A stretch of DNA of 64,000 nt from Escherichia coli (GTDB taxonomy: Bacteria > Pseudomonadota > Gammaproteobacteria > Enterobacterales > Enterobacteriaceae), in NCBI RefSeq assembly GCF_965641715.1, contig NZ_OZ282453.1. One strand, 5' to 3'. Below are positions 39,133-53,105 of this stretch, piece after piece. The notes beneath the pieces were generated by a model that worked only from the letters and a program-made list of their open reading frames with translations, was not told the origin of the DNA and did no database searches. A program made the position numbers and the translations under genes. The stretch's first letter is position 1. Each line of letters begins with the position of its first letter.

Positions 39133-40532
39133 ACACTCGCCAGCTACTGAGCGTCGGTATCGATATCGGCACCACCACCACCCAGGTGATTTTCTCCCAC
39201 CTGGAACTGGTTAACCGTGCGGCGGTGTCGCAGGTGCCGCGCTACGAATTCATCAAACGCGAAATTAGCTGGCAAAGCCCGGTGTTCTTTACCCCTGTCG
39301 ATAAACAGGGTGGTTTAAAAGAAGCGGAACTGAAATCGCTGATTTTAGAGCAATATCAGGCTGCGGGCATTGCGCCGGAAAGCGTTGATTCTGGTGCCAT
39401 CATCATCACCGGTGAAAGCGCGAAAACCCGCAATGCTCGCCCGGCGGTGATGGCGCTCTCTCAGTCGCTGGGCGATTTTGTCGTCGCCAGCGCCGGGCCG
39501 CACCTCGAATCCGTGATCGCCGGTCACGGTGCCGGGGCGCAAACCCTTTCTGAACAACGGCTGTGTCGGGTACTGAATATCGACATCGGCGGTGGCACCG
39601 CGAACTACGCCCTGTTCGATGCCGGAAAAATCAGCGGCACTGCCTGCCTCAACGTCGGTGGTCGCCTGCTGGAAACCGACAGCCAGGGGCGCGTGGTTTA
39701 CGCTCATAAACCGGGGCAGATGATTGTGGATGAGTGCTTCGGCGCAGGCACCGATGCCCGTTCGCTGACCGGCGCGCAGCTGGTGCAGGTTACCCGGCGG
39801 ATGGCAGAGCTGATTGTCGAAGTGATTGACGGAACGCTTTCGCCGCTCGCGCAGGCATTAATGCAAACCGGTTTGCTGCCCGCAGGTGTTACGCCCGAAA
39901 TCATTACGCTTTCTGGCGGCGTGGGCGAATGTTATCGCCACCAGCCCGCCGACCCGTTCTGTTTTGCCGATATTGGCCCGCTTCTGGCAACGGCGCTGCA
40001 TGACCATCCGCGCCTGCGTGAGATGAACGTGCAGTTTCCGGCGCAAACCGTGCGCGCCACGGTGATTGGTGCGGGTGCACATACCCTTTCGCTCTCTGGC
40101 AGCACAATCTGGCTGGAGGGCGTACAACTGCCGCTGCGCAATTTGCCGGTGGCGATCCCAATTGATGAAACGGATCTGGTGGGTGCCTGGCAACAGGCGC
40201 TGATTCAGCTGGATCTTGATCCCAAAACTGACGCGTACGTGCTGGCGCTTCCCGCCTCGCTGCCTGTGCGTTACGCCGCGGTACTGACGGTCATCAACGC
40301 GTTGGTCGATTTCGTCGCGCGTTTTCCGAATCCGAATCCCCTGCTGGTGGTGGCCGGGCAGGACTTTGGTAAAGCTCTGGGCATGTTGTTGCGCCCACAG
40401 CTACAACAACTCCCGTTGGCAGTCATTGACGAAGTGATTGTCCGCGCGGGGGACTATATCGACATTGGTACGCCTCTTTTTGGCGGATCGGTTGTGCCGG
40501 TGACGGTGAAATCACTCGCATTTCCTTCCTGA
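39129..40532 (+). CDS. eutA: Ethanolamine ammonia-lyase reactivase EutA
   Basis: 467 aa; the TGA stop (40530-40532) lies inside the att core of the island. Confidence 0.94.
   Translation: MNTRQLLSVGIDIGTTTTQVIFSHLELVNRAAVSQVPRYEFIKREISWQSPVFFTPVDKQGGLKEAELKSLILEQYQAAGIAPESVDSGAIIITGESAKTRNARPAVMALSQSLGDFVVASAGPHLESVIAGHGAGAQTLSEQRLCRVLNIDIGGGTANYALFDAGKISGTACLNVGGRLLETDSQGRVVYAHKPGQMIVDECFGAGTDARSLTGAQLVQVTRRMAELIVEVIDGTLSPLAQALMQTGLLPAGVTPEIITLSGGVGECYRHQPADPFCFADIGPLLATALHDHPRLREMNVQFPAQTVRATVIGAGAHTLSLSGSTIWLEGVQLPLRNLPVAIPIDETDLVGAWQQALIQLDLDPKTDAYVLALPASLPVRYAAVLTVINALVDFVARFPNPNPLLVVAGQDFGKALGMLLRPQLQQLPLAVIDEVIVRAGDYIDIGTPLFGGSVVPVTVKSLAFPS
40511..40532. repeat. attL (bacterial arm + 8-bp core CTTCCTGA)
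   Basis: atcactcgcatttccttcctga. The core at 40525-40532 is repeated at 51725-51732, and atcact is also shared. Confidence 0.7.
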
Positions 40533-40582
40533 ATACTGTAGTTATCAGGCGTGGCGCTGGGTGGCTGGGTGTTAGTGGGATT

Positions 40583-40602
40583 ATATCCGGCTGTGTATCC
40601 GG
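40583..40602. repeat. GTATCCGG-type repeats near attL (candidate integrase arm-type sites)
   Basis: atatccgg at 40583-40590 and gtatccgg at 40595-40602. Confidence 0.4.
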
Positions 40603-40626
40603 TCGGGGTGATTGGTCTGTATAGCA

Positions 40627-40648
40627 GAAAACCCGGCGCGGGGCCGGG
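40627..40648 (-). terminator. Rho-independent terminator after the Rha-like gene
   Basis: Minus strand reads cccggc-cccgc-gccggg followed by TTTTT. The hairpin is identical to the one at 42316-42337. Confidence 0.8.
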
Positions 40649-40655
40649 TGAACTA

Positions 40656-41216
40656 TCACTCAGGGAACAAGTTGATTTGAAGCAAACTGCCAATGTATTT
40701 ACCAGTGCTTTTAATTTTTCGCTTTGATGGCTTACACGAATTCAGGTTGACACCAGCCTGGCTAGATATTGGCTTGTATTGCCGCTCCGCCAGTACGATC
40801 AGGTCTGCCGCGTCTTTTAGCTTTCCATCGTTAGCCAGTTCCAATGCTCGATCCGCCATTTGCCCGCATTGTTGAATCAGCTTAAGTTGCGATACCTCCA
40901 GTCGCAATTGCTGGATTCGTTCTACCACTTTCGCCCTAATGCGCTTAGTTTCACGCATTCCCATTCTTAATGCCTGGTTGCCAGTAAGTGAGTAAACCTC
41001 TTTTTCTTTCCTGAAGTTTGCGGCTTTACCGTCAGCTTGGACGCGCATTTTATGCGCTTCCAAGAATTCGCCCTCCAATTCATCCCTGATCTTCGCGTTG
41101 AATCTGTCGTTCTTGAGTTCATTTAACCCTTCCGCCTTGCGGATCTGGTTGATTAACTCCAACAATTCATCACTGCGGATACGCCACTCGCTATCAACCT
41201 GTACCAAGTCAAACAT
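40656..41216 (-). CDS. Rha-like phage regulatory / antirepressor-like protein (186 aa)
   Basis: ORF track 40656-41309 begins at a TTG. I prefer the ATG at 41216 (MFDLVQVDSEWRIRSDELLELINQIRKAEG), which has a GGGAG RBS 7 nt upstream. The domain pattern resembles the Phage_pRha family; this is a memory-based judgement, not a search result. Confidence 0.6.
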   Translation of the reverse strand: MFDLVQVDSEWRIRSDELLELINQIRKAEGLNELKNDRFNAKIRDELEGEFLEAHKMRVQADGKAANFRKEKEVYSLTGNQALRMGMRETKRIRAKVVERIQQLRLEVSQLKLIQQCGQMADRALELANDGKLKDAADLIVLAERQYKPISSQAGVNLNSCKPSKRKIKSTGKYIGSLLQINLFPE

Positions 41217-41380
41217 GTTGTTGCTCCCGTTTTGCTGCCATAGGGCAACGGCTCGCCAGCCTTTATCACCTCCTTTAGTTGTTGCGATTCTTAACTGAAT
41301 GGTTATCAAAACGCTGCGTTAATATCATTGATATGTATCAAATTTGTTTTGTGACGCGACAATGCCTTGTGAATATCAAT

Positions 41381-41404
41381 AAAAAACCCAGCGCTATGGC
41401 TGGG
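41381..41404 (-). terminator. Terminator after the XRE-HTH gene
   Basis: Minus strand reads cccagc-catagc-gctggg followed by TTTTTT. Confidence 0.8.
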
Positions 41405-41437
41405 CTTCGTTTAATGAGATGGGATTGAAAGCGGGTT

Positions 41438-42220
41438 TTATTTATCTCCCAGATTGTATTCCCAGTTGGGAAGTAAAGTTATCAGCTTGTCACCTTTCTT
41501 GCCTTTGCCGATCTGGTTGCCGTTCTCGTCTTTCTTGTGTGTGATTTCCTGGTCAACCTTAATCAATCCTCTCTCTTTGGCTTGCTCAATCAGTCGGTAG
41601 AATGCGCCGTTACTAATCGGCTTCCGGTTACCGTCGTTATCCATCGCAGTGATTTTCTGTTGCAGTCCGGCGTTATTGCCCAGGTATTCGCCACCTAACG
41701 CCGCCAGTACCTGACACAACATGCCGACACTGTATTTTTTCGGATTTGGGTTAATCCATTCTTTAGCTCCCATCTCTTTTTTGTCGTTGGGCGCTTGTTC
41801 TGCTGCTACTGCGTTCACCTTTTCATCTCCCATCTTGTTACCGCTTGCTGTGCGCTTAATTTCTTCCAGTTCTCTCTCAAGCTCACCTATACGTAATTCA
41901 CGCTCGATAATTACCCCGCGCAGCACATCATCATCACCGTGAGGGCTTGCCTGAATCCAGTTACCATTGGCGAGCGGTAGGAGGGCATAAATTCCGAACA
42001 GGTCACAAAGCGCGGCAAGTGTATTAAAATCAGGTTCCCGGCGTCCCTCCATCCAGTGGCTAACAGCGCCTTTTGTGACTGGTTCGCCTTTCTTGCTTTT
42101 AACACCCATGCGATCCAGTGCGGCGGCTATCTCTTCGCATTTAATGCCACGACCGCCAGCATAGCCCGCCGCTTTCGCGGCCCCTTTGAGGATGTCGTGA
42201 ATTTTCATTTCGTAACTCAT
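41438..42220 (-). CDS. XRE/cI-type HTH protein with coiled-coil linker and C-terminal putative winged-helix domain (260 aa)
   Basis: ORF 41438-42235. Start moved to MSYEMKIHDILKGAAKAAG, where the GGGAGA RBS is 8 nt upstream. The segment GIKCEEIAAALDRMGV...TKGAVSHWMEGRREPDFNTLAALCDLFG matches the HTH_XRE pattern. Confidence 0.7.
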   Translation of the reverse strand: MSYEMKIHDILKGAAKAAGYAGGRGIKCEEIAAALDRMGVKSKKGEPVTKGAVSHWMEGRREPDFNTLAALCDLFGIYALLPLANGNWIQASPHGDDDVLRGVIIERELRIGELERELEEIKRTASGNKMGDEKVNAVAAEQAPNDKKEMGAKEWINPNPKKYSVGMLCQVLAALGGEYLGNNAGLQQKITAMDNDGNRKPISNGAFYRLIEQAKERGLIKVDQEITHKKDENGNQIGKGKKGDKLITLLPNWEYNLGDK

Positions 42221-42230
42221 AATTTTATCT

Positions 42231-42258
42231 CCCATCTCATGAACTATGGTGGGAGATT
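42231..42258. promoter_or_regulatory. 28-bp box copy 1 (CCCATCTCAT-N9-TGGGAGATT), overlapping the RBS of the HTH gene
   Basis: Near-identical box at 42939-42966. ATCTCCCA (42227-42234) and TGGGAGAT (42250-42257) form a perfect 8-bp inverted repeat. Confidence 0.5.
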
Positions 42259-42315
42259 AACACGGCGGGCCTGTGGCGGGTAAGTGTAACGGGAGAGAAT
42301 GTTGATTCAGGTCAC

Positions 42316-42337
42316 AAAAACCCGGCGCGGGGCCGGG
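42316..42337 (-). terminator. Terminator after the 158-aa gene
   Basis: aaaaacccggcgcggggccggg is identical over 21 nt to the terminator at 40628-40648. Confidence 0.8.
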
Positions 42338-42359
42338 CTGTGTTAGTACGTCGTTGCTC

Positions 42360-42836
42360 TTAGTTCATGAGGAGATCTTTAAATTCGACGCCGTATTCAT
42401 GGGCAATGTCGCCTCTATAGTAGATGTTATCTTTCAGGATATATCCGACGTTTCTCAGGACGTGAGAACACTCTCTTACTGCTGCCTCTTTACCCCTTAA
42501 AACATCCTCCCCGCTAACTTCTTCGCCGCTGTACTTCACTGCGATGTTGTCTGCTGCACGCTCTGCTGCTTCCAGGCAATTAATCTTCACTTTTCCCCGA
42601 TTCTCCCAGGCAAAATCGCGGCCATAAATCCCCATTGCATCAACCATCTTTTGCGCAGTAGTGCGCTCATCCACCCATTCAGTGCGTTCGAACTTCTCGC
42701 CAGCAGCTACCCTTGCCGCCAGTTGTTCGTGTTGAGTCTGTACGGCCGCAGCCTCTTCTTCCCATTTGCCTTGCTCGTTGTATACGATGAAGCCAGTGAT
42801 GACTGCAGCGATTAGTAACTTGTCCAGAAAATTCAT
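42360..42836 (-). CDS. Membrane-anchored (N-terminal TM) protein of unknown function, 158 aa
   Basis: Strong RBS AGGAGGA 6 nt before the ATG. MNFLDKLLIAAVITGFIVY signal-anchor, then a soluble domain with two Cys. Confidence 0.7.
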   Translation of the reverse strand: MNFLDKLLIAAVITGFIVYNEQGKWEEEAAAVQTQHEQLAARVAAGEKFERTEWVDERTTAQKMVDAMGIYGRDFAWENRGKVKINCLEAAERAADNIAVKYSGEEVSGEDVLRGKEAAVRECSHVLRNVGYILKDNIYYRGDIAHEYGVEFKDLLMN

Positions 42837-42938
42837 AGCTTCCTCCTATCTGTTCAATTACCCGGCATCTCTTGCCGTTGAACGTATTAAACAAAATGCC
42901 AGTCAGGGATAAAGCGATCTGCGTCATAAAGTCCATCC

Positions 42939-42966
42939 CCCATCTCATTGATATTGATGGGAGATT
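42939..42966. promoter_or_regulatory. 28-bp box copy 2, about 100 nt upstream of the 158-aa gene
   Basis: CCCATCTCAT-tgatattga-TGGGAGATT. On the minus strand it overlaps a candidate promoter, CTGACC-N18-CAATAT. Confidence 0.45.
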
Positions 42967-43041
42967 GTTTAATTGGTCAGAAATTAAGCGTTTATGTGCG
43001 CTGCCGGGTATCCACCTCCTATCTGAAGATGGAAAGATGGG

Positions 43042-43123
43042 TGATATAATGTGATGGCAATTGGTGGATTGCGTGGTTTTTACAATGATAAGGGGCTGGC
43101 GTAATGCTGGCCCCTTTGTTTAT
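43042..43123 (+). ncRNA. Candidate ~65-nt plus-strand sRNA (promoter through terminator)
   Basis: Perfect extended -10 TGaTATAAT at 43042-43050. First hairpin gcaat-N6-attgc at 43057-43072. An 11-bp terminator stem at 43090-43116 has two G-U pairs, so it only folds well on the plus-strand RNA. It is followed by TTTGTTTAT. Confidence 0.4.
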
Positions 43124-43162
43124 CCGGTATCCGGTATCCGGTATAAGCGGGCGTGTATCCGG
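43120..43162. repeat. Internal cluster of TATCCGG/GTATCCGG repeats
   Basis: tTATCCGGTATCCGGTATCCGG (three tandem 7-mers) plus gtatccgg at 43155-43162. The segment cgtgtatccggtagcgggga resembles ctgtgtatccggtcggggtga at the left end. Confidence 0.6.
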
Positions 43163-43356
43163 TAGCGGGGATATGGGCGCGTGTACGTGAAATCTGGCAA
43201 ATTAGCAGGGTAATTGTGAGGGAATTTTTGCGTAGGAGCGTTTGTGGCTGGTAGCTCAAAATTGAGCTTTGCTTTTCATTCAATGACTTAGGTTAATTCT
43301 AGCAAAACGCTAGGATTGAATGTCCGCCAGTCTGCTTCCCCTAGCGTGGGATTTGG

Positions 43357-45723
43357 TCAACGTCTGCGCGGCTGCAAAATTCCTCCGGGTCGTTGTGATT
43401 CACGCTGCATCAGTCGCATCGCTGTGTTTTCTATGGTCTGCTGCAGCGCTTTTGAGTCTTCCTCTGTCCAGCCGTTGTTAGCCTGGATGTTGAACGTATT
43501 GTTCATCGTGATTCCGCCACCGCCTACCAGATCGCGGCCCGGTGTAACTCGTCCACCTTCACCCGGGATCATGTACTGTTTCCCGCCAGTGGATGTAAAT
43601 AGCTCCGGTACTCCGTGCTCCCCGACCCTATAAAGATTGCCACCGTTAACAGCCCCGCCGTTGTAACGAGCGCCAGCCAGTCCAAGCGTTTTGGCGGCAG
43701 CTACGCCAGTAGTAAGCCCGGTAAGTCCAGTGGCCCCAGCGCCGCCCATCGTGGCTACGTTAGCCAGGTATGCAGGAGTGGCCCACGCCGATCCTAATGC
43801 TGTAGCCTCTGCTAGTGCTTTAGCTGTTGCGGCTGCGTTTGCGGCTTCACCAATTAGCTGCTGTTTAACCCACTCAGCACCCATCTGGACAATGCCACCG
43901 ACCACAGAAGACAGGATCGTACTGCCAACGTTGGCAAGTGACTCTTGCAGCGATTGAGTACCGTTTATCAGTCCGGTAAATGCGCTGCCAGCGCCAGACG
44001 ATAACCCATCGACCATATTCCCGATGAGGCCATTTATATCGCTTTGTTTCTTCCACTGCTGCCACTGGAGATCCAGAACCCTTTGTTCATGTGCGATCTC
44101 TTCCTGGCGCAACTGCTCTTCGGTAGCCCCAAGATCTAGAAGCATTTGCTTGCGAACAGCCCATTCATTTTGGATCTTCTGTATTGGGTCAATCTGAGCT
44201 TTCTGCTTATCCTGCTCACTGACAAGACTGTCCCATTTCGCTTTCTGCTTGCGGATGGCTTCAGCTTCATCAATTGCTGCGAGTGTACTTGCTCGCTGTT
44301 TCGCGCTGATCAACCGTTTCTGCTCAGCCGCTTCCAGGTCTTCTACTGCTTTTTTCCGTTTATTGAGCGCCGCTAGTTCGGGATCGTATTTTTCCACCAA
44401 TGAAAGGCCGCTTGCTTCCTTACGTTCGCGTTCTCTTTGTGCCTGTTTGGCTGCCTGCTTAGCGGCGTTTTCTGCTTGTTTGGCTGCTCTTTCTTTCGCC
44501 CTGGTGTTCTCTTCTTCCTTGCGCTTATTCTCTTCTAACTCCTTGTTTTGTTCGCGTAATTTAACGATTTCCTCATGATGCGCCTTTGTCAGCTGGCCTT
44601 CTTTCAGTGCCCGATCTATATCAGCGTTTGCGTTGCCTTTTAGCTGTTCCTGTTTAACTTGCAGATGTTTAATCATCATTTCGCCAGTGGCAATCGCTGC
44701 CGCAGACGCTCCAGCATTCAGAGCTTCATTTAACGCTCTCTGACGTTCTTCTGCTGTTAATGCCTCGTTGCTGTATCGAAGTAGCGCATCAACGTATTTC
44801 TCCAGTTCTGCGCGGCCTGCCGCAGTTGCTGGTTCCATTGCTTTTAGGATGCTCAGAAGGCTTTGCGCTTCATAGGAAGACGGGTTTTTGCGGAACTGCG
44901 CCATAGCGTTATAAAGCGCCATAGCTTCACCCTCTGTGATTCTGTACTTAGCTCCCAGCCCTTCAATGACCGCTGATAACTGTTTGCCAAGCGCTGCACC
45001 GAATGCGCCTTCCTTGCTTAATTTGTTGAGCACTTCACTCAGTGAATTTCCTGACACGCCCAGCGCGTCGAGTTCTCTTGCTACCGTTCCCAGGTCGCCG
45101 CCTTTCATCCATCCTGCATTAGAAAATTCAGTGATAGCCCGGCCCGCTTCCCGCGTTTCTTCCTGGAGTGTTTTTAGCGCCCGCACGGCCTGCTCTTTCA
45201 TTACGGCGGCGGCAATGGCGTTGTTCTGTGTGGCTTCGTAATATGAATCACTGAAAGCGTTAACGCCCTGGGTGGATTTGCCGATCACGGCGTCGATTGA
45301 TGCTAATGCCTCCTTCATCCTTTCAGCGCTATCCGTTGCGTCGTCCATGCTGTCCGTTAGGCTGTTGGCAATCGCCCCGCCAATAGCCATCACCGCCCCC
45401 ATGACCGCACCGCCAGTACCGAAGGCAGCGGCAAGTTGTGCACCCTGCACAGCGAACGCCTGGAGCGCATTACCGCCCATCTGCAATTGAGTGGCAAGGT
45501 CTGCGATCTGGTATGATGCGTTACGGATTGCCGGGGAAAGGTTGGTTTTGACTGCGGCAGACGTTTTGGTCATCTGCGTGTTCAGTTTTTTGACGCCACT
45601 GTCAGCGCGTTTTGCGCCGCGTTCTATACTGTCAAAAGCCTGGTCCGCTTCTTGTTGTGCTGCCAGGAGTTTACCAGTACGGGCGTCGACCTCATAGTAT
45701 ATGGTCCCAAGATTCCCACTCAT
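43357..45723 (-). CDS. Phage tail tape-measure protein, lambda gpH-like, 788 aa, apparently full length
   Basis: The N-terminal YQIADLATQLQMGG segment, the long E/K/A/Q coiled-coil core, and the Gly-rich hydrophobic C-terminal region ending GG..YRVGEHGVPELF ... NNTFNIQANNG match my memory of gpH domain order. Confidence 0.8.
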   Translation of the reverse strand: MSGNLGTIYYEVDARTGKLLAAQQEADQAFDSIERGAKRADSGVKKLNTQMTKTSAAVKTNLSPAIRNASYQIADLATQLQMGGNALQAFAVQGAQLAAAFGTGGAVMGAVMAIGGAIANSLTDSMDDATDSAERMKEALASIDAVIGKSTQGVNAFSDSYYEATQNNAIAAAVMKEQAVRALKTLQEETREAGRAITEFSNAGWMKGGDLGTVARELDALGVSGNSLSEVLNKLSKEGAFGAALGKQLSAVIEGLGAKYRITEGEAMALYNAMAQFRKNPSSYEAQSLLSILKAMEPATAAGRAELEKYVDALLRYSNEALTAEERQRALNEALNAGASAAAIATGEMMIKHLQVKQEQLKGNANADIDRALKEGQLTKAHHEEIVKLREQNKELEENKRKEEENTRAKERAAKQAENAAKQAAKQAQRERERKEASGLSLVEKYDPELAALNKRKKAVEDLEAAEQKRLISAKQRASTLAAIDEAEAIRKQKAKWDSLVSEQDKQKAQIDPIQKIQNEWAVRKQMLLDLGATEEQLRQEEIAHEQRVLDLQWQQWKKQSDINGLIGNMVDGLSSGAGSAFTGLINGTQSLQESLANVGSTILSSVVGGIVQMGAEWVKQQLIGEAANAAATAKALAEATALGSAWATPAYLANVATMGGAGATGLTGLTTGVAAAKTLGLAGARYNGGAVNGGNLYRVGEHGVPELFTSTGGKQYMIPGEGGRVTPGRDLVGGGGITMNNTFNIQANNGWTEEDSKALQQTIENTAMRLMQRESQRPGGILQPRRR

Positions 45724-46012
45724 AATATCTTTATCCGCGTTGTGCGGACACCTCCGATTATTCTTTACTCTAATAATTTCACAATGAAACAGTTTATTGC
45801 CGCTTCAGTGGCTTCGTGTTCCGGTTTGCTTCGATCAATCACAAAAAATACAGCTTAATAGAATCAATGGCTTATAAAGTTGTATTAGCTATGTTTCTTC
45901 GTCCGTGCCACTGAAAACCCAGTTTTTCCAATGGAATCAATACTGATATGTATCCATACTGTTTTTCACATAATGTACGTTATGCGCACTACGGGAAACG
46001 TACTGAATTTAT

Positions 46013-46243
46013 TTACTGGTCGCCGTTCAGTTCATGCAGAGTCTGTTCTGGCAATGAATCCAGCCAGTTTTCTGCATCCTCCCTGTAACACTCCAGGATG
46101 CAACGGTTTGTGAAGTTGATGAAAGCGGTCAGTGATTCTGCTTCGTCGTTCCTGTGCGTTCTCCTGGCGTGCTTGCGTAGTCGTTTCGCGTCTGCCAGTT
46201 GGTCATTGAGTATCTTCAGTCTGTCGGCAATATCATCGTTCAT
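46013..46243 (-). CDS. Hypothetical 76-aa helical protein
   Basis: GGGAGAG RBS 5 nt upstream of the ATG; protein-like charged helical composition; no family recognised. Confidence 0.55.
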   Translation of the reverse strand: MNDDIADRLKILNDQLADAKRLRKHARRTHRNDEAESLTAFINFTNRCILECYREDAENWLDSLPEQTLHELNGDQ

Positions 46244-46378
46244 GTCGTCTCTCCCTCGCGCGCGCGTCGTACTTGTCCGAAAATTACCCCCATAAAAGCG
46301 CCCCTCATATAGTGCAAAATCCCGGCTGACGCGGATCTCAGTGGGTTTTAGCAGTGAAAACTGACATCAAAAACGGCT

Positions 46379-46426
46379 CGCTAAGGTCCGCTAAGTATCC
46401 GCTATCGTTCGCTAACCCCCCGCTAA
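46379..46426. repeat. Five phased CGCTAA (minus strand TTAGCG) direct repeats
   Basis: Copies start at 46379, 46389, 46400 (CGCTAT), 46410 and 46421. The spacings of 10, 11, 10 and 11 bp equal one helical turn. Confidence 0.85.
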
Positions 46427-46430
46427 CCTA

Positions 46431-46796
46431 TTAGATATCGCATCCAACGCTATTGAGCTGGCTATGTATATCGGCGCGAATTAACTTCAGGCGTTTACAA
46501 AATTCGCGTTCTTCCGAATTAAGCTCGCGGCCACCTTGTTTCGAGGCAATGAGCTTGTTGATGGTGGAAAGCGAATATTCACTCCATATACGAAGCATTT
46601 GTCGCTTCATTGGTTGCTCGCTCAATGGTGAGTTTTTCAGGTCTGACACGCGCTCTGCGACGGTTCTTGCGATGCCTTGTACCACTCGTAGTGCCAACAT
46701 GATGATTTTCTCCGGACTTGTGCTAATATAGTTCCCGAACATTGTTTCGAGACTGCTTATCCTGTTTGTCTTGTCCGATTTGTTCATTGGTCGCAT
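46431..46796 (-). CDS. Hypothetical 121-aa protein
   Basis: ORF with protein-like composition (…IIMLALRVVQGIARTVAERVSDL…) but no obvious SD. A hairpin lies just upstream, and the stop abuts the CGCTAA array. Confidence 0.5.
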   Translation of the reverse strand: MRPMNKSDKTNRISSLETMFGNYISTSPEKIIMLALRVVQGIARTVAERVSDLKNSPLSEQPMKRQMLRIWSEYSLSTINKLIASKQGGRELNSEEREFCKRLKLIRADIHSQLNSVGCDI

Positions 46797-46838
46797 TGTT
46801 AAGTCAGCCGGGGTAATTCCCGGCTTTCTTTTATCCGA

Positions 46839-47381
46839 TCAGTACCGAATCCCTATCGCATTGAATACGCGTTTCCGTTGCTCAGCTTCAGGATCGGCGG
46901 CCATTTCTGGTTCTGGCTCCGGCATAGACGGGGCGGCATCAAAATGCTCAATTTCACGACCGAAATACGAGTTCAGGTCAATACCTGCCGAACTATCCAC
47001 TCCATCAAAATAGCGACGCTGTTCCTCGGTGAGACAGCTACCCAGACGTTCCTCAACCTGCGCCATAAACTCAGCATCCGGTGAGAAGTACTCATCCGGA
47101 GTCGGAGCACCGCTCTGTTTGTGCATCTCCATTTTCTCTGCGTTCGTTTTCAGCCCGGCAATGCGTTTCTCCAGTCCGGCGGCTTTAATAGCGTCAGCAA
47201 CGATTTGTGGGATCTGCGGTTTAATTATTTCGATAACTTCATTGCTGATTAATTTAAACTGGGCCATACGGATCGCTTTAATCTGCTTATTTAACAGTGC
47301 GCGTTCCCCTTCGTTGGCGGTTTTATCACGCTGTGCTACCAGTTCATCGCCTTTGTTTGTCAGTACATCAAATGCGTCCAT
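46839..47381 (-). CDS. Hypothetical 180-aa protein with acidic, Pro-rich C-terminal part
   Basis: Strong RBS GGAGGAGG; starts 17 nt after the stop of the 108-aa ORF. Confidence 0.65.
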   Translation of the reverse strand: MDAFDVLTNKGDELVAQRDKTANEGERALLNKQIKAIRMAQFKLISNEVIEIIKPQIPQIVADAIKAAGLEKRIAGLKTNAEKMEMHKQSGAPTPDEYFSPDAEFMAQVEERLGSCLTEEQRRYFDGVDSSAGIDLNSYFGREIEHFDAAPSMPEPEPEMAADPEAEQRKRVFNAIGIRY

Positions 47382-47398
47382 TGTCTTTCCTCCTCCGA

Positions 47399-47725
47399 TT
47401 ATTTAAAAGTGCTTATTGACACGCCGAAACGACGACTTAATTCAAAAAGGAGTCGCGCCTTTGCAGTGCCTTCCATGTCTTCCGGCATTTCAGACTGAAG
47501 TTTATCAGCTACTTCATCAACAAGTGGCCGAACCGTTTCCACGAACTTGTCCGCAATATAATCAGCAGAACGCATCACTTTTTCCTGGAATTCCTCACGG
47601 CGTACCTGGGCGGCTGATTTAGGGGCTGTCGTGCGCTGAAAATAACTGTCTAATGAATGCATGGCATCTGCTCCTTTTACTTTGATTGCTGTTATTTCTT
47701 TAATTGTGTTTGCTTTGATTTTCAT
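47399..47725 (-). CDS. Hypothetical 108-aa protein
   Basis: AAGGA RBS; first gene downstream of alpA in the same orientation. Confidence 0.55.
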   Translation of the reverse strand: MKIKANTIKEITAIKVKGADAMHSLDSYFQRTTAPKSAAQVRREEFQEKVMRSADYIADKFVETVRPLVDEVADKLQSEMPEDMEGTAKARLLFELSRRFGVSISTFK

Positions 47726-47801
47726 GCTGCCTATTCCTTCAGAAATTGCGGTAGTTTGCTTTTTAAATCAATAAGTTATTTGATAATCTCAGTAGCTGTT
47801 T

Positions 47802-47993
47802 TCATTGGTGGCGAGCGCCTTTGTTTTTATAGAATTCCAAAATCTCAGATCGGATAAACTTAATTCTTGAGCCAATCGGACTGACCGGGACGGGCCAGCC
47901 TTTAATCTTGTTCATCCACCGGAATATTGTCCGACGGGTAACGCCGAATAAAGCTGCTACCTCGTTAACCGTCATTAATTCGCTATCATTCAT
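47802..47993 (-). CDS. AlpA-family (Phage_AlpA/HTH_17) transcriptional regulator / excisionase-like protein, 63 aa
   Basis: LMTVNEVAALFGVTRRTIFRWMNKIKGWPVPVSPIGSRIKFIRSEILEF is the typical AlpA/MerR-like HTH. GAGGTGAG RBS. Confidence 0.85.
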   Translation of the reverse strand: MNDSELMTVNEVAALFGVTRRTIFRWMNKIKGWPVPVSPIGSRIKFIRSEILEFYKNKGARHQ

Positions 47994-47996
47994 GTT

Positions 47997-48046
47997 CTCA
48001 CCTCAAAAAGTAGCGGTGAGGAAAATATGGAGAAAACCCTCACCGC
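47997..48046 (-). promoter_or_regulatory. Terminator-like leader hairpin immediately upstream of alpA; one arm duplicates the SD
   Basis: mRNA sense: GCGGTGAGG-N16-CCTCACCGC (9-bp perfect stem), then UACUUUUU, then GAGGUGAG (SD), then AAC-AUG. The 3' arm can also pair with the SD (CUCACC/GGUGAG). Confidence 0.55.
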
Positions 48047-48090
48047 GCCCTGAATGAAATTAAAGACCAACATTACTGTTGATACTTATT

Positions 48091-48096
48091 ATTATA
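48091..48096 (-). promoter_or_regulatory. Candidate -10 (perfect TATAAT) for the alpA operon
   Basis: Minus strand reads ggaaTATAATaa, about 95 nt upstream of the alpA ATG. The -35 is weak (ATGTGA). Confidence 0.3.
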
Positions 48097-48185
48097 TTCC
48101 TCCTGTCCCTGTTTCACATCTTTTACCATATAGTGAAAGGGGATATTCTGTAATGTTTACAAAACTTTTAATTAGCAAAAAATAA

Positions 48186-48306
48186 TTGCGCATCTCACGT
48201 AATGCAGGGATAATATTACTCAAGGGCTGGTTGCCCTTACTCAAAATGTGATCTATAACTACAACGATCTATTTCACTTCCCCGCTTTCTCCGGCGGGAT
48301 TTTTTT
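48186..48306 (+). ncRNA. Candidate ~85-nt plus-strand sRNA (promoter through terminator)
   Basis: TTGCGC-N17-GATAAT at 48186-48214. 5' hairpin aagggc-tggtt-gccctt at 48222-48238. 3' hairpin cccgc-N8-gcggg followed by a run of seven T at 48300-48306. Confidence 0.3.
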
Positions 48307-49118
48307 GCCTGCAATCTGGCACCATTGCGCACATTAAAATTAGATGCCATTTAAAAGCGATATAACGCGTTCTGCCGGGCTTAATTTTGGCTATCCACTT
48401 GGAAGGGTAAGCCTGTTTTGATTCGTCTGGCGTGGAATGGTGCGGCGGTAATATCAGATCTCAGCGTTCTGCGTGGTGGGATGAAATAGCCTGGCAGGAT
48501 TTGCGTGTGGTTTGCTCTCCCAAAAAATGGGGTAATGGCGCTGGCTGGATGGCAGGACTCCGCGCTGATTACTGGATGGCTGAAAATTTAATGAAATCGC
48601 ATCAATTTTAATGCGTCTAAATCGCTCTGTGGCGACGTGAAGTTTTCAGGTAAGCAAGTGTAGCTGTGTGGTGTGTTCATCGCGTTACTGGCACCATTCC
48701 GTTCGAATTTGGCGCTATCAGGATGGTTTGCGGTGGTCGGCGGCGGGGATAAACTTGCTTGAGTGGTCACCTCAGCCTGCTGTGCGTCGTGTGATGGTAC
48801 TGTCTGCACCTGGCTATACGCTGCTTTGCTGCTGTTTCCTGTCTGGTCTGTATACGCGATAAAACCCATCGGCTTTACAGTGAGTGAGTTTTTTGCGCTT
48901 TGCTTTCCATTCGGTTTGCTTACTGCTGCTGTGTGTCTGTGCGGTAGCTCAGAAAGCTGTCGATGATAACCATCACTGCCAGACCGTCTTTTGAGCTGGC
49001 GATTGCTCGAAGTCTTCCGAAGGTCCGCTGGGCTTGTTGCTTGTTTGTGTTCTTTTAAAATGCGCGCCTCTTACTTTCTCTTAAAAAGAAAAAAGGAATA
49101 TACAGATCTCATACTATG

Positions 49119-49273
49119 TGTGTCCCAAATGTCACACGTCATGGCCTGACCTGTATCCCAAATGTCACACGTCACCCTCTGACCTGTATCCCAAATGTCA
49201 CACGTACCTGTGTCCCAAATGTCACACGTCTATTGTTAATTAATTGTTGACCTGTGTCTCAAATGTCACACGT
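49119..49273. repeat. Five direct 21-bp iterons TGTRTCCCAAATGTCACACGT (putative ori)
   Basis: Copies at 49119-49139, 49152-49172, 49185-49205, 49209-49229 and 49253-49273 (one mismatch). Start spacings are 33, 33, 24 and 44 bp. Four copies are preceded by (G)ACCTG. An AT-rich tract with AGATCT lies at 49081-49110. Confidence 0.85.
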
Positions 49274-49290
49274 CTGTTGATGGTTTAAGT

Positions 49291-49320
49291 AATAAAAAGG
49301 GCCACCATTTTAGGTGACCC
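49291..49320 (-). terminator. Terminator after the Rep-like gene
   Basis: Minus strand reads gggtcacc-taaaat-ggtggccc followed by TTTTTATT. Confidence 0.7.
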
Positions 49321-49338
49321 ATTGATGCGTTTTAGTCG

Positions 49339-50103
49339 TTATCTTGCGTTCTCGACCTGAAAAAGCATTCTGTATTTTCTTGCGTGCTGACCAATAACAT
49401 ATTCCCCGTATGGCTCAATGAGTCCTAACTCAACCAGGATTTTCATCTGGCGAATTACGGTGCGGCGATTCATGCCCCATTCATCAGCTATTTTTGCCTG
49501 GCAAACTTCAGATACATAAGATCCATCATTCTGCTTTCTTGCTGCTGATGCAATGCTGGATAATACGCTCCAGGCTGTAGCTTTAGCTTTATTCTCGCAA
49601 CCACTTCTGACAAATGCCTTACGTGCCGCACCCAAACAGACATAACTGCAATAAATTCCTTTTTCTTCCGTTTGGTATTGTGTCTCTTTATCCTGCATGG
49701 CTTCCGGTTCTTCCGGCGCTTCCTGCTGTGGTGCTGTCTGCGAAGTTTTAGCGGCCATACTGCGTAGCTCGTTCACGATATCAGTAGCTGATTTCTTCTC
49801 GCTTTTAGTTTCCTGCGTGACTGATAAATACTCACCTTGTAACGCCAGGAAGTCAGCGCGGGCGTTTGCCTGGCTTTGTTCTGGTGATTCAGGTTCTGCA
49901 TCGGCAGGTGATGAAATCGGTGATACACGCGCCCAGCCTGTTTTGGCGTTGCATTCCCAGCGATAACCATTAAAGCGGATATCATTCAGGCCATCATCAA
50001 TGGCGCTCCGTACTTCTTCCGGGATCGCGTCGATTTTCTGAAGGCTGTGTTTACCGAGTGATTCGCCTTGCCGTGGGGCGTAGGCGGTTGGTAAAATATT
50101 CAT
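49339..50103 (-). CDS. Putative iteron-binding replication initiator / winged-helix DNA-binding protein, 254 aa
   Basis: AAGGAGAA RBS. The C-terminal segment IADEWGMNRRTVIRQMKILVELGLIEP is a wHTH-like motif. A long acidic Q/E/P-rich linker is present. The gene is directly followed by a terminator and the iteron array. No primase or helicase motifs. Confidence 0.55.
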   Translation of the reverse strand: MNILPTAYAPRQGESLGKHSLQKIDAIPEEVRSAIDDGLNDIRFNGYRWECNAKTGWARVSPISSPADAEPESPEQSQANARADFLALQGEYLSVTQETKSEKKSATDIVNELRSMAAKTSQTAPQQEAPEEPEAMQDKETQYQTEEKGIYCSYVCLGAARKAFVRSGCENKAKATAWSVLSSIASAARKQNDGSYVSEVCQAKIADEWGMNRRTVIRQMKILVELGLIEPYGEYVIGQHARKYRMLFQVENAR

Positions 50104-50173
50104 GTGGGATTTCTCCTTTTTACTTGTTTCCCATATCGCCCGGATTGGTTAGCGGCCTTCCGGGCTTTTTGTT
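50068..50173 (+). ncRNA. Candidate countertranscript (antisense) RNA to the rep leader, ~70 nt, with its promoter
   Basis: TTGCCG-N18-TGgTAAAAT (extended -10) at 50068-50097 places the TSS near 50104, abutting the rep ATG. The transcript is complementary to the rep SD (ttctcctt at 50111-50118). It ends at hairpin gcccgga-N14-tccgggc followed by TTTTTGTT (50138-50173). Confidence 0.5.
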
Positions 50174-50317
50174 GCGTTGATCCTATTTTCGATCCCCGGA
50201 TTTTTTATTACAAACTTGGCTTAATCATTGATTTTATTGGTATAGCTGTATAAAAGGATAACAGGATAAAAGGGTGATAGATTGTGTAACCTGTTAACCT
50301 TTTATACCAGTAAGGCG

Positions 50318-50341
50318 AAAGAAAAGCCGGACGAATCCGGC
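50318..50341 (-). terminator. Terminator after the integrase gene
   Basis: Minus strand reads gccgga-ttcg-tccggc followed by TTTTCTTTC. Confidence 0.75.
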
Positions 50342-50349
50342 CTTATAGT

Positions 50350-51555
50350 TCACGGCTCCAGCGGATTACCGCCACCAGCCAATATCTGGTCGATGGCGTC
50401 GCTGTAGTCCTGCATCATGGCCCGCCGTTGCTTCAGATAGGCCGCCTGGTTATAAACGCCGCGCACACCTTTCGGAACGTGGGCCAGTTGGATTTCGATC
50501 CAGTCTGGTGAGTATCTGCCGTACTCGTTAAGTGCGGTTGAAAAGGTGGTTCGCCAGCCGTGACCAGTGGCTATCGACTTGTATCCGATACGCTCCAGGG
50601 CTTTAAGGATGGCACTGGCTGAAAGTGGCTTATCCATGAATCGACCAGGGAACACAAAAGCACTGTATCCGCTGCGGGTAAACTGGTCCTGTAATAGCTC
50701 GACCGCCTGCCGGGATAGCGGGACCACATGCGGGCGGCGGGCCTTCATGACTTCAGCGGGTAGGGTGATGGTTGCCGATTCCAGATCTACCCACTCCCAG
50801 CGCATTAAACGCAGTTCTGCGGTCCTTAGGGCGCTTAATATAAGCAAACGTATTGCCGTCTGAATCTGAACGCTCCCGGCTCTCTCAAGGGCTTTGTAGA
50901 AGGCCGGGATTTCGTTAATTTGTATCCATGCGTTATGGCCTGGGCGTCGGGCTTTCAATGCCGTGTCCAGATCTGCAACCGGATTTCGGTTAACCAGTTC
51001 AGTGATAACGGCAAATTTGAAGATTTCCCCTATACGCTGCCGTAATTTTCGGGCCTGTTCCGGCGCGGTGCGCTCTTTCTTCTGAAGCAATGCCAGCACG
51101 TCACGGGCCGTTATATCGACAATCGACCGCTTGCCAAGTACCGGATAAACATCTTTCTCCAGTGCCGATCTAACTTGTTTCGTGTAAGACTCAGACCAAC
51201 CGCTCACTCTGGTAGCAAACCAGTCTTCCGCTACCGTCTTAAAACTTGCCGCCATGTTGAGCGCATCAATGGCTTTCTCCTTGCGCGCTTCTTCCATTGG
51301 GTCAATTCCCTGGGCGATGAGTAAACGGCTCTCTGTGGCGCGTTTACGTGCTTCCTTCAAGGTAATCAGCGGATATACCCCAATAGCCTGTAACCGCTCT
51401 TTCTTGTCTATCCAGTACCGGAATCGCCAGTATTTGCTGCCATTGGGATGTACCAGCAAGAACAGGCCAGGTGTCTGTGAATCGGTGAGTTTGTAGGGCT
51501 TGTCCTTCGGCTGGGCGGCCTCTATGCCCTTTGCTGTCAGTGGTGTCTTGCTCAA
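50350..51555 (-). CDS. P4-family tyrosine integrase (N-terminal arm-binding DUF4102-type domain), 401 aa; occupies the position of K-12 intZ
   Basis: TTG start with a GAGGT RBS. KPYKLTDSQTPGLFLLVHPNGSKYWRFRY is the typical P4-integrase N-terminus. C-terminal catalytic residues are present: ...HGWRTTFST...LAHV...GVYNQAAY. Confidence 0.9.
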   Translation of the reverse strand: MSKTPLTAKGIEAAQPKDKPYKLTDSQTPGLFLLVHPNGSKYWRFRYWIDKKERLQAIGVYPLITLKEARKRATESRLLIAQGIDPMEEARKEKAIDALNMAASFKTVAEDWFATRVSGWSESYTKQVRSALEKDVYPVLGKRSIVDITARDVLALLQKKERTAPEQARKLRQRIGEIFKFAVITELVNRNPVADLDTALKARRPGHNAWIQINEIPAFYKALERAGSVQIQTAIRLLILSALRTAELRLMRWEWVDLESATITLPAEVMKARRPHVVPLSRQAVELLQDQFTRSGYSAFVFPGRFMDKPLSASAILKALERIGYKSIATGHGWRTTFSTALNEYGRYSPDWIEIQLAHVPKGVRGVYNQAAYLKQRRAMMQDYSDAIDQILAGGGNPLEP

Positions 51556-51557
51556 AA

Positions 51558-51604
51558 CCGGATACCTCGATCTAACGACTCGATAACCCCGCTCATGTAT
51601 CCGT
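51558..51604. repeat. GTATCCGG-type motifs near attR (candidate arm-type sites)
   Basis: ccggatac (inverted) at 51558-51565, overlapping the int RBS, and gtatccgt at 51597-51604. Confidence 0.35.
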
Positions 51605-51717
51605 CGCGTTCGGTTGCGTTCGGCAGGATAAGTAACGGGCGTATTAAGTGGAACACCTTACAGGACAAGGGATAACGATGAAATAGAATTGTTCGAATGC
51701 TGTGAAAAATGTTACTC

Positions 51718-51732
51718 ATCACTTCTTCCTGA
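51718..51732. repeat. attR (element-borne imperfect copy of the eutA 3' end)
   Basis: atcacttcttcctga, followed directly by gggaacgacttATG of eutB, the expected uninterrupted eutA-eutB junction. Confidence 0.7.
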
Positions 51733-51743
51733 GGGAACGACTT

Positions 51744-53105
51744 ATGAAACTAAAGACCACATTGTTCGGCAATGTATATCAGTTTAAGGATGTAAAAGAG
51801 GTGCTGGCTAAAGCCAACGAACTGCGTTCGGGGGATGTGCTGGCGGGCGTCGCAGCGGCAAGCTCACAGGAGCGCGTGGCGGCAAAGCAGGTGTTGTCGG
51901 AAATGACCGTAGCGGACATCCGCAATAATCCGGTGATTGCCTATGAAGATGACTGCGTGACGCGGCTGATTCAGGACGATGTTAACGAAACGGCCTACAA
52001 CCAGATTAAAAACTGGAGCATCAGCGAACTGCGTGAGTATGTGCTGAGCGATGAAACCAGCGTGGACGACATTGCCTTTACCCGCAAAGGGCTGACCTCG
52101 GAAGTGGTCGCGGCGGTAGCGAAGATTTGCTCCAACGCGGACCTGATCTACGGCGCGAAGAAAATGCCGGTAATCAAAAAGGCCAATACCACCATCGGTA
52201 TTCCGGGCACCTTTAGCGCCCGTTTGCAGCCAAATGACACCCGTGACGACGTGCAAAGTATCGCCGCGCAAATCTACGAAGGGCTTTCCTTCGGGGTGGG
52301 CGATGCGGTGATCGGCGTCAACCCGGTAACTGACGATGTGGAAAACTTAAGCCGCGTGCTGGATACCATTTATGGCGTGATCGACAAATTCAACATCCCA
52401 ACTCAGGGCTGCGTACTGGCGCACGTCACCACCCAGATCGAAGCGATTCGTCGCGGCGCGCCTGGCGGACTGATTTTCCAGAGTATCTGTGGCAGCGAAA
52501 AAGGGCTGAAAGAGTTTGGCGTGGAACTGGCGATGCTCGACGAAGCGCGCGCAGTGGGCGCAGAGTTCAACCGTATCGCCGGGGAAAACTGCCTCTACTT
52601 CGAAACCGGACAAGGCTCTGCGCTATCCGCTGGCGCTAACTTCGGCGCTGACCAGGTGACGATGGAAGCACGTAACTATGGGCTGGCGCGTCATTACGAT
52701 CCGTTTATCGTCAACACCGTGGTCGGTTTTATTGGGCCGGAGTATCTCTACAACGACCGCCAGATTATCCGTGCTGGCTTAGAAGATCACTTTATGGGCA
52801 AGCTGAGCGGCATCTCTATGGGCTGTGACTGCTGTTACACCAACCACGCTGACGCTGACCAGAACCTCAACGAAAACCTGATGATCCTGCTCGCCACCGC
52901 AGGCTGCAACTACATCATGGGGATGCCGTTGGGCGATGACATCATGCTCAACTACCAGACCACCGCCTTCCACGACACTGCCACTGTGCGTCAGTTACTC
53001 AACCTGCGCCCGTCACCGGAGTTTGAACGCTGGCTGGAAAGCATGGGCATTATGGCAAACGGTCGCCTGACCAAACGGGCGGGCGATCCGTCACTGTTCT
53101 TCTGA
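51744..53105 (+). CDS. eutB: Ethanolamine ammonia-lyase large subunit
   Basis: ORF track starts at 51702, inside the island. The true start is MKLKTTLFGNVYQFKDVKEVLAKANE at 51744, 453 aa. Confidence 0.95.
   Translation: MKLKTTLFGNVYQFKDVKEVLAKANELRSGDVLAGVAAASSQERVAAKQVLSEMTVADIRNNPVIAYEDDCVTRLIQDDVNETAYNQIKNWSISELREYVLSDETSVDDIAFTRKGLTSEVVAAVAKICSNADLIYGAKKMPVIKKANTTIGIPGTFSARLQPNDTRDDVQSIAAQIYEGLSFGVGDAVIGVNPVTDDVENLSRVLDTIYGVIDKFNIPTQGCVLAHVTTQIEAIRRGAPGGLIFQSICGSEKGLKEFGVELAMLDEARAVGAEFNRIAGENCLYFETGQGSALSAGANFGADQVTMEARNYGLARHYDPFIVNTVVGFIGPEYLYNDRQIIRAGLEDHFMGKLSGISMGCDCCYTNHADADQNLNENLMILLATAGCNYIMGMPLGDDIMLNYQTTAFHDTATVRQLLNLRPSPEFERWLESMGIMANGRLTKRAGDPSLFF

Follow-up and report, generated by a model that had tools for sequence, protein, structure and literature searches.

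Candidate arm-type sites of the IntZ integrase and a core-less internal repeat cluster in an Escherichia coli island of the CPZ-55 family

Why does one short motif, TATCCGG, occur near both ends of an integrated island and again as a dense cluster in its interior? The question is raised by a 64-kb stretch of Escherichia coli DNA (contig NZ_OZ282453.1; here "the window", at its full length), which carries an 11.2-kb island with its own integrase gene, intZ. A first-pass annotation had read the repeats as arm-type sites, and the internal set near 43.1 kb as evidence of a composite structure, in which the cluster marks either the original left end of the element or its junction with an integrase-less passenger. 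On balance, comparison with related islands leads us to favour a reading in which the end copies would be arm-type sites of IntZ, the internal copies would be locally duplicated and at most accessory, and the cargo would have been assembled by homologous recombination.

The island between eutA and eutB

The window consists of eut-operon DNA of E. coli, in which eutA extends to 40532 and eutB begins at 51744. The empty eutA-eutB site of AR435 aligns to 40100-40532 and to 51725-52150, and because these alignments overlap by 8 bp, the intervening DNA is an 11.2-kb insert. The overlap, CTTCCTGA, is the crossover sequence and target duplication. Its left copy (40525-40532) comprises the last bases of eutA including the TGA stop, and its right copy (51725-51732) lies 11 bp upstream of the eutB ATG. 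An identical 8-bp duplication has been published for CPZ-55 in K-12 (PMC6379469). Thus, given its place after the stop of eutA and before the start of eutB, together with the CTTCCTGA duplication, the island is a member of the CPZ-55/intZ family with a P4-type tyrosine integrase. Moreover, an IntZ orthologue adjoins the eutB-side junction, and intZ is annotated in all relatives that retain it. In the window, intZ occupies 50350-51555 on the minus strand, starts with TTG and encodes a protein 92% identical to K-12 IntZ.

Some form of the island is carried by 488 of 5426 complete E. coli genomes, and none of the 5426 covers at least 80% of the island of this window. The island is a new mosaic member of a known family. 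Besides the insertion point, the duplication and the closely related integrase, it shares with K-12 CPZ-55 (intZ, yffL-yffS) the four motif copies at the ends, a terminator hairpin followed by a conserved non-coding block, and a yffS homologue in its second cassette. It differs in its size (CPZ-55 measures 6.8 kb), in its cassettes, in its backbone, where a tape-measure homologue and an iteron-associated HTH_36 Rep-like gene take the place of yffL-yffP of K-12, and in the internal TATCCGG cluster, of which K-12 has none. Low-frequency excision is still seen for K-12 CPZ-55 (PMC3105296).

The motif is enriched in the island. Exact copies of GTATCCGG number five in the window, all of them inside the island (40595, 43127, 43134 and 43155 on the plus strand, 51558 on the minus strand); dinucleotide shuffling gives an expectation of 1.02, and none of 100 shuffles contained five or more. 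The shorter TATCCGG occurs eight times in the 11.2 kb of the island compared to 2.1 expected from the remaining window (Poisson P of about 0.0016). It is found ten times elsewhere in the window, half of these copies being repetitive extragenic palindromic (REP) elements. We considered and rejected an origin of the island copies from TTATCCGGCCTAC-bearing REP elements or bacterial interspersed mosaic elements (BIMEs), as the island copies lack both the palindromic partner GCCGGATG and the CCTAC tail, which the five non-island copies possess. The first-pass annotation had located the motif correctly near both ends and in the dense internal cluster, bar two qualifications: positions 40583-40590 read ATATCCGG, and positions 51597-51604 read GTATCCGT in the window (one mismatch), with GTATCCGG in all five relatives aligned there.

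The end copies as candidate arm-type sites of IntZ

The end copies were compared with those of ten island variants (K-12, ATCC 8739, 2018-18.25PC, 14EC029, USMARC-49610, 200088, LH13-b, TOK-001, C7 and F2_407). In the 11-island alignment, the attL (P') arm (40533-40619, plus strand) is conserved in all variants up to ...GATTGGTCTG. It contains two candidate sites in direct orientation with 12-bp spacing, ATATCCGG at 40583-40590 and GTATCCGG at 40595-40602 on the plus strand, which lie at +52 and +64 after the left core across the ten variants. The attL arm is included in 17 loci, of which 15 have sites at +52 and +64; in C7 and in F2_407, one of the two copies reads TATCCGA. The motif pair is the best-conserved stretch of the arm, ahead of the 49 bp on its core-proximal side (mean column identity of 98.3% with 18 of 22 columns invariant, compared to 90.7% with 25 of 49), and conservation of the arm collapses beyond +87.

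On the eutB side, two alignments delimit three candidate sites in the attR (P) arm (51556-51724). The first is an inverted GTATCCGG (51558-51565) between the Shine-Dalgarno sequence (GAGG) and the TTG start of intZ, the second is the direct GTATCCGT (51597-51604), and the third is a degenerate inverted CAGGATAA (51624-51631), which reads CCGGATAT in ATCC 8739, F2_407 and TOK-001. The inverted and direct copies stand at -174 and -134 before the right core in every variant with an intact intZ. Of these two, TOK-001, in which intZ is lost, retains only the copy at -134. A further inverted copy at -108 is found in three variants, namely ATCC 8739, F2_407 and TOK-001. All four end sites are retained in K-12 CPZ-55 at about 85% DNA identity.

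As the first-pass annotation had supposed, the integrase is of the P4 family and has an N-terminal arm-binding domain: Pfam finds Arm-DNA-bind_3 (PF13356, residues 6-93, E = 1.5e-24), followed by Phage_int_M and Phage_integrase. A scan of species-representative genomes with IntZ returned eight loci, seven of which were too distant for use. An island at the same site with an integrase of only 67% identity (72% in the arm domain), L029, has a strongly diverged P arm and keeps both TATCCGG copies in place. In a Klebsiella relative, whose integrase is 44% identical and whose insertion site is a tRNA-Arg gene, the motif is a different one: TGGGGGTA occurs twice in direct orientation 12 bp apart, with an inverted copy between the Shine-Dalgarno sequence and the ATG of int. 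In this one relative, seen for its int-proximal arm, the layout is the same with another motif, which may have changed along with the arm domain; the relative at 67% identity keeps TATCCGG.

The fixed geometry on both arms, the conservation above that of neighbouring positions, the arm-binding domain and the parallel Klebsiella architecture together indicate that the end copies are most likely arm-type sites, to which IntZ would bind by its N-terminal domain. The proposal of the first-pass annotation for these copies thus gains support from their fixed positions and from their persistence at 67% integrase identity, with IntZ as the protein that, we infer, binds them. The P' arm would hold two direct IntZ sites at +52 and +64, and the P arm an inverted-direct(-inverted) set at -174, -134 and -108; together, these sites would organise the intasome for integration and excision. 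Such an arrangement is standard for integrases of the lambda, P4 and KplE1 type. Short non-core repeats on both arms, 50-175 bp from the crossover, are likewise found in lambda (P1, P2, P'1-3) and as P' sites of IntS in KplE1, and the lambda and P4-type integrases share the N-terminal arm-binding domain. Moreover, int of KplE1 also abuts att, its promoter and ribosome-binding site overlapping the sites (PMC2951348). Unlike in lambda and KplE1, no consensus for integration host factor (IHF) was detected here, and the IntZ sites are predicted from sequence. No published description of IntZ arm sites was found in a literature search, so that they are apparently described here for the first time, computationally.

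Because intZ abuts the junction, its promoter must fall inside the 170-bp P arm. In KplE1, IntS negatively autoregulates int through sites that overlap att (PMC2951348). By analogy, and given this position of the promoter, the end copies would let IntZ repress its own gene. A scan of the P arm for sigma-70 promoters yielded none for intZ, only a plus-strand site directed toward eutB. Most variants conserve this promoter-like sequence (AGGACA-16-TAGAAT, 51662-51689, plus strand), which has an altered form in K-12; it might allow eutBCLK, downstream of the insertion, to be expressed again.

Several points weigh against assigning the end copies to IntZ. The IHF consensus was found in neither arm, the copy at -174 is partly constrained by translation signals, and the window's own copy at -134 is the degenerate GTATCCGT. 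In addition, TATCCGG is enriched inside L029 as well, in no obvious pattern, and an AlpA-like recombination directionality factor (RDF) or another island protein could bind the motif instead. In L029 (10001-21206), eight copies lie within 11 kb, four of them intergenic, and no shared context was seen.

The last of these points leads to an alternative that we hold to be unlikely, in which the motif would be the operator of another island protein, for example an AlpA/Xis-like HTH_17 protein or a repressor, and in which the motif's copies at the ends would control intZ and the directionality of excision, and its copies in the cluster would control transcription at the junction of backbone and cargo. 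The island does contain a gene for such a protein, a candidate RDF of 63 amino acids (47802-47993, minus strand; Pfam HTH_17, E = 7e-9; PHROG excisionase/regulator), and KplE1 and P4 offer a precedent, as their RDFs bind to direct repeats of the att arms and act as repressors of int (PMC2951348). Moreover, TATCCGGTA is partly palindromic, the internal copies adjoin a promoter/terminator pair, and the extra intergenic copies in L029 would suit an operator. However, both arms carry copies, at distances from the core that resemble those in lambda, and whereas RDF sites usually lie on one arm, placement on both arms is typical of integrase arm sites. The apparent change of motif in the Klebsiella relative along with its diverged arm-binding domain and the retention of all four end sites in K-12 CPZ-55 also speak against such an operator.

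The internal cluster and the exchange of cassettes

The internal cluster (43121-43162, plus strand) consists of three tandem TATCCGG units at 43121-43141, followed by TATAAGCGGGCGT and by GTATCCGG at 43155-43162, just as first annotated. Tandem Repeats Finder resolves it as a nested repeat, with a 7-bp unit present 3.4 times (43121-43144, 100% matches) and a 28-bp unit present 2.1 times (43127-43185, 80%). The number of 7-mer units is polymorphic: three in ten genomes, two in 13P460A, whose surroundings are otherwise identical, and in two metagenome variants, two in TOK-001, where a unit carries a mutation, and one in C7, LH13-b, F2_407 and FDAARGOS_1284. K-12 and USMARC retain the hairpin and the block and have no TATCCGG unit at all. 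The cluster was found in 28 of the 5426 complete E. coli genomes, always at the eutA/eutB locus, and exact-pattern scans of IMG/VR and metagenomes recovered its core in the same island family and otherwise only as chance matches in coding regions. Across the E. coli genomes, IMG/VR and the metagenomes, the context of hairpin, cluster and block is constant. The cluster would have arisen by local tandem duplication (28 bp, twice) and slippage of the 7-bp unit to between one and three copies.

A resemblance over about 25 bp between the last internal copy and the attL-proximal copy had been noted earlier. Local alignment does return 26 identities in 35 columns, a score equalled in 13 of 2000 shuffles. 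This similarity is carried by an 11-mer, GTGTATCCGGT; taken by themselves, the flanks show no significant similarity (3428 of 5000 and 1666 of 5000 shuffles score equally high). Since GTGTATCCGGT is common to the cluster and the second attL site, the cluster can probably bind the same protein as that site.

The cluster is not an att site, and it cannot serve as a crossover site as it stands. No match to CTTCCTGA with up to one mismatch lies within 600 bp of it, the nearest being at 42455 and 44100, and the 14-mer core context does not occur internally in the island. No P-arm (inverted/direct) arrangement was seen to the left of the cluster, the IHF consensus was not found near it, and in no sampled relative, whether genome or metagenome, does the cluster stand beside a core.

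The idea that a relic P' arm survives in the cluster, at what was once the left end of the int-bearing element or at a tandem-accretion junction, with 40.6-43.1 kb as an integrase-less passenger mobilisable by IntZ in cis, would nevertheless account for several features. The internal copy shares GTGTATCCGGT and its 26/35 local similarity with the second attL site, the internal copies are direct as in the P' arm, the distal genes are missing or replaced in relatives, and in TOK-001 the distal part of the attL arm occurs again on the right side of the block. In addition, in four lineages (C7, F2_407, LH13-b and TOK-001) homology to the window begins exactly within the cluster, at 43128-43135. 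Elements formed by accretion of integrative and conjugative elements and cis-mobilisable elements, as well as tandem satellite arrays, similarly have, at one attB, an integrase-bearing element and next to it a variable segment that lacks an integrase, the boundary between the two being marked by a copy of the motif. However, accretion leaves a complete internal att site with core and arms. Here, neither a core-like sequence within 600 bp, nor the 14-mer context, nor the P-arm arrangement is found, the flanks beyond the motif lack significant similarity, and the cassettes assort independently. In every variant, the outermost position belongs to the true attL arm and its pair of sites, and the cluster was never seen beside a core in sampled genomes or metagenomes. 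Finally, the boundary seen in the four lineages is also present in K-12 and USMARC, which lack the cluster.

The organisation of the distal 2.6 kb is a further point against a single passenger, as this segment consists of three predicted promoter-ORF-terminator cassettes, for which the nearest relatives differ. The island is indeed modular to the left of about 43.1 kb, as had been claimed: the distal genes are missing in 14EC029 and replaced in USMARC, C7, F2_407, 200088 and K-12. The individual parts have different closest relatives. Positions 40400-41416, which take in the attL arm together with cassette 1 and the linker that follows it, are 98.9% identical to F2_407, and this segment is absent in 2018-18.25PC. 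Positions 41264-43675 extend over cassettes 2 and 3 and over the cluster with its block into the 3' end of the tape-measure gene; they are 99% identical to 2018-18.25PC and ATCC 8739, whose first cassette differs from that of the window. This homology is collinear across the cluster into the tape-measure gene. Positions 45731-51493 are 99.4% identical to USMARC-49610, and none of the relatives fetched closely matches the central part of the tape-measure gene in between (43675-45731). Because the homologies of the segments differ, one breakpoint falls in the shared linker 41264-41416, another at about 43675 within the tape-measure gene and a third a little upstream of that gene, at about 45731; the closest relatives show no breakpoint at the cluster. 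The passenger is thus not gained or lost as one unit bounded by att sites, and no internal att site with a core-type crossover sequence was found. Together, these results leave little room for an original left end at 43.1 kb or for a passenger acquired by site-specific accretion, which we regard as quite improbable.

The mosaicism instead fits homologous exchange of moron-like cassettes rather than site-specific accretion. Linkers are common to otherwise different islands, and the cassettes would have been exchanged singly by homologous recombination in them, that is, in the attL arm with its terminator, in 41231-41416, 42274-42347 and 42876-43052, and in the block. Phage morons and the cargo hotspots of prophages and satellites offer a parallel: the int-distal end holds self-contained units, each with a promoter-like region, an ORF and a terminator, their content differs between related islands, and conserved flanks allow exchange; a relative has a second hotspot, with an AIPR gene. 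Here, however, PADLOC found no known defence family in the three cassettes of the window, and one of their proteins resembles an antirepressor.

This protein, of 192 amino acids, is encoded by cassette 1 (40656-41234, minus strand). It has weak matches to PHROG antirepressors and about 37% identity to Ant1/Ant2 of phage P1 over 60% of its length, and it could be a derepressor of a helper prophage rather than passive cargo. The terminator hairpin of the cassette, AAAACCCGGCGCGGGGCCGGG (40628-40649, minus strand), recurs as an identical 21-mer at 42317-42337 and as a diverged copy at 41383-41408, so that a terminator of this type closes each cassette. The ORF of cassette 2 (41438-42235, minus strand; 265 amino acids) is a homologue of K-12 yffS with weak helix-turn-helix matches (Pfam HTH_31/HTH_3, below the curated cutoff), and its DNA is about 75% identical to the K-12 yffS region and 99% identical to 2018-18.25PC and ATCC 8739. 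Cassette 3 encodes a protein of 158 amino acids (42360-42836, minus strand) with no family match, for which no phage homologue was found. Inverted repeats of the form TCTCCCATC...GATGGGAGA are located at 42227-42258 and 42935-42966, with similar repeats in K-12 CPZ-55; the former extends over the Shine-Dalgarno sequence and the ATG start of the yffS-like ORF, whose ribosome-binding site it could mask.

The cluster itself is part of a conserved non-coding unit at the junction of backbone and cargo. An extended -10 promoter, TGATATAAT (43042-43050, plus strand), opens a segment (43042-43116) that closes with a terminator hairpin (43090-43116, plus strand, from a terminator scan) and TTTGTTT, directly before the TATCCGG array. 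The array is followed by TATAAGCGGGCGT-GTATCCGG-TAGCGGGGATA and by the block, aligned as GGCGCGTGTACGTGAAATCTGG...GTGAGGGAATTTTTGCGTAGGAGCG (43176-43245, plus strand), which runs from GGCGCGTGTACGTGAAATCTGG through ...GTAGGAGCG to about 43245. The promoter and the hairpin with its T tract recur in K-12, C7, F2_407, USMARC and FDAARGOS_1284, the hairpin sequence being different, and the block is present in K-12, USMARC, LH13-b, TOK-001, C7 and F2_407. The whole unit is absent from 14EC029 and 200088. As homology of the distant relatives C7, F2_407, LH13-b and TOK-001 to the window starts at 43128-43135 and stops near 43250, the cluster and block form a small conserved island amid variable DNA. 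Moreover, since K-12 and USMARC share the boundary without the cluster, this boundary is a property of the block rather than of the TATCCGG copies.

A small plus-strand RNA of about 50-70 nt is a candidate product of 43042-43116, a strong terminator hairpin being predicted 40 nt after TGATATAAT. Rfam gave no match at E values up to 1 over 40000-52300. A plus-strand hairpin of the block in RNAalifold has essentially no covariation, with several pairs broken in the most diverged relative, and the minus strand gave nothing. We also rejected the block as a cos or pac site shared with a helper phage, as a blastn search of 43085-43300 against 50,697 phage records returned no match. In TOK-001 (locus L009, 2557-3195, equivalent to L018, 11557-12195), an AT-rich filler, the hairpin, the cluster and the block lie between 11-bp direct repeats, TGATTGGTCTG, the second of which continues into a duplicate of the distal attL arm and terminator. 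This arrangement could be the product of misaligned or illegitimate recombination, or of an insertion into the arm.

If the end copies are arm sites of IntZ, the internal copies, lacking a core, would be at most accessory, acting as a binding sink or a local roadblock, and not recombinogenic. Two points tell against this part of the favoured reading as well. A role as "accessory or sink" is a weak commitment, and the GTGTATCCGGTAGCGGGGATA core shows no variation across at least seven sequence contexts, among them those in which identity of the neighbouring block drops to about 74-81% (F2_407), which hints at a function of the cluster's own.

Such invariance equally speaks against a cluster without any function, that is, a duplication prone to slippage, in which the arm motif is present by accident and which travels with the conserved block; the window-wide count also makes a chance 7-mer identity to the arm motif unlikely. 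Copy number does differ between near-identical strains, the entire cluster is dispensable in K-12 and USMARC, it is present in 28 genomes compared to 488 with some form of the island, and its similarity to attL is confined to the motif, all consistent with absence of function. We nonetheless consider this explanation doubtful.

At the other extreme, the array could be a functional, core-less third IntZ locus, for example a sink for the integrase that varies in copy number through 7-bp slippage, a roadblock that couples the integrase level to read-through, or an architectural site by which the cargo region is looped during excision. The read-through in question could be that between the backbone and the cargo cassettes or that of the adjacent small plus-strand RNA. 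We know of no counterpart, in descriptions of lambda or KplE1, of a motif cluster 2.6 kb from the core, and we give this possibility very little weight. If true, it would mean that an arm-type site is used away from any att site.

Backbone genes and meaning of the site map

The first backbone gene to the right of the block encodes a tape-measure-protein homologue of 788 amino acids (43357-45723, minus strand; phrog_1538, E = 8e-112 over the full length; weak Pfam TMP_2). It is intact in many variants, and no other head or tail genes are present in the 11-kb island. Five iterons with 33/24-bp spacing, TGT(A/G)TCCCAAATGTCACACGT, lie at 49119-49285, directly upstream of the gene for an HTH_36 protein of 254 amino acids (49339-50103, minus strand) that has a weak match to replication-initiator PHROGs. 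The two are a probable origin and initiator, which would suggest that the island can replicate after excision. Relatives show further plasticity (loci L004/L015, 7235-9742; L006, 3024-6877; L018; L002/L013): the second cargo hotspot, with its AIPR (abortive-infection) gene, lies to the right of the tape-measure gene, an IS1 and gadC/murI insertion stands in place of that gene, and, besides the loss of intZ in TOK-001, USMARC-49610 carries an intZ-eutB fusion deletion.

The internal repeat is a minor curiosity. If confirmed, the arrangement at the ends would provide a site map for IntZ, the integrase of a textbook K-12 cryptic prophage. The map would comprise an 8-bp core, two sites in a P' arm no longer than 87 bp, and two or three sites that overlap the start of intZ in a P arm of 170 bp. 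The comparison would also indicate that eutA/eutB islands diversify by cassette exchange beside a conserved non-coding block. While the current view of integrases and islands would be unchanged, such a map would be useful for the annotation of islands and for site engineering.

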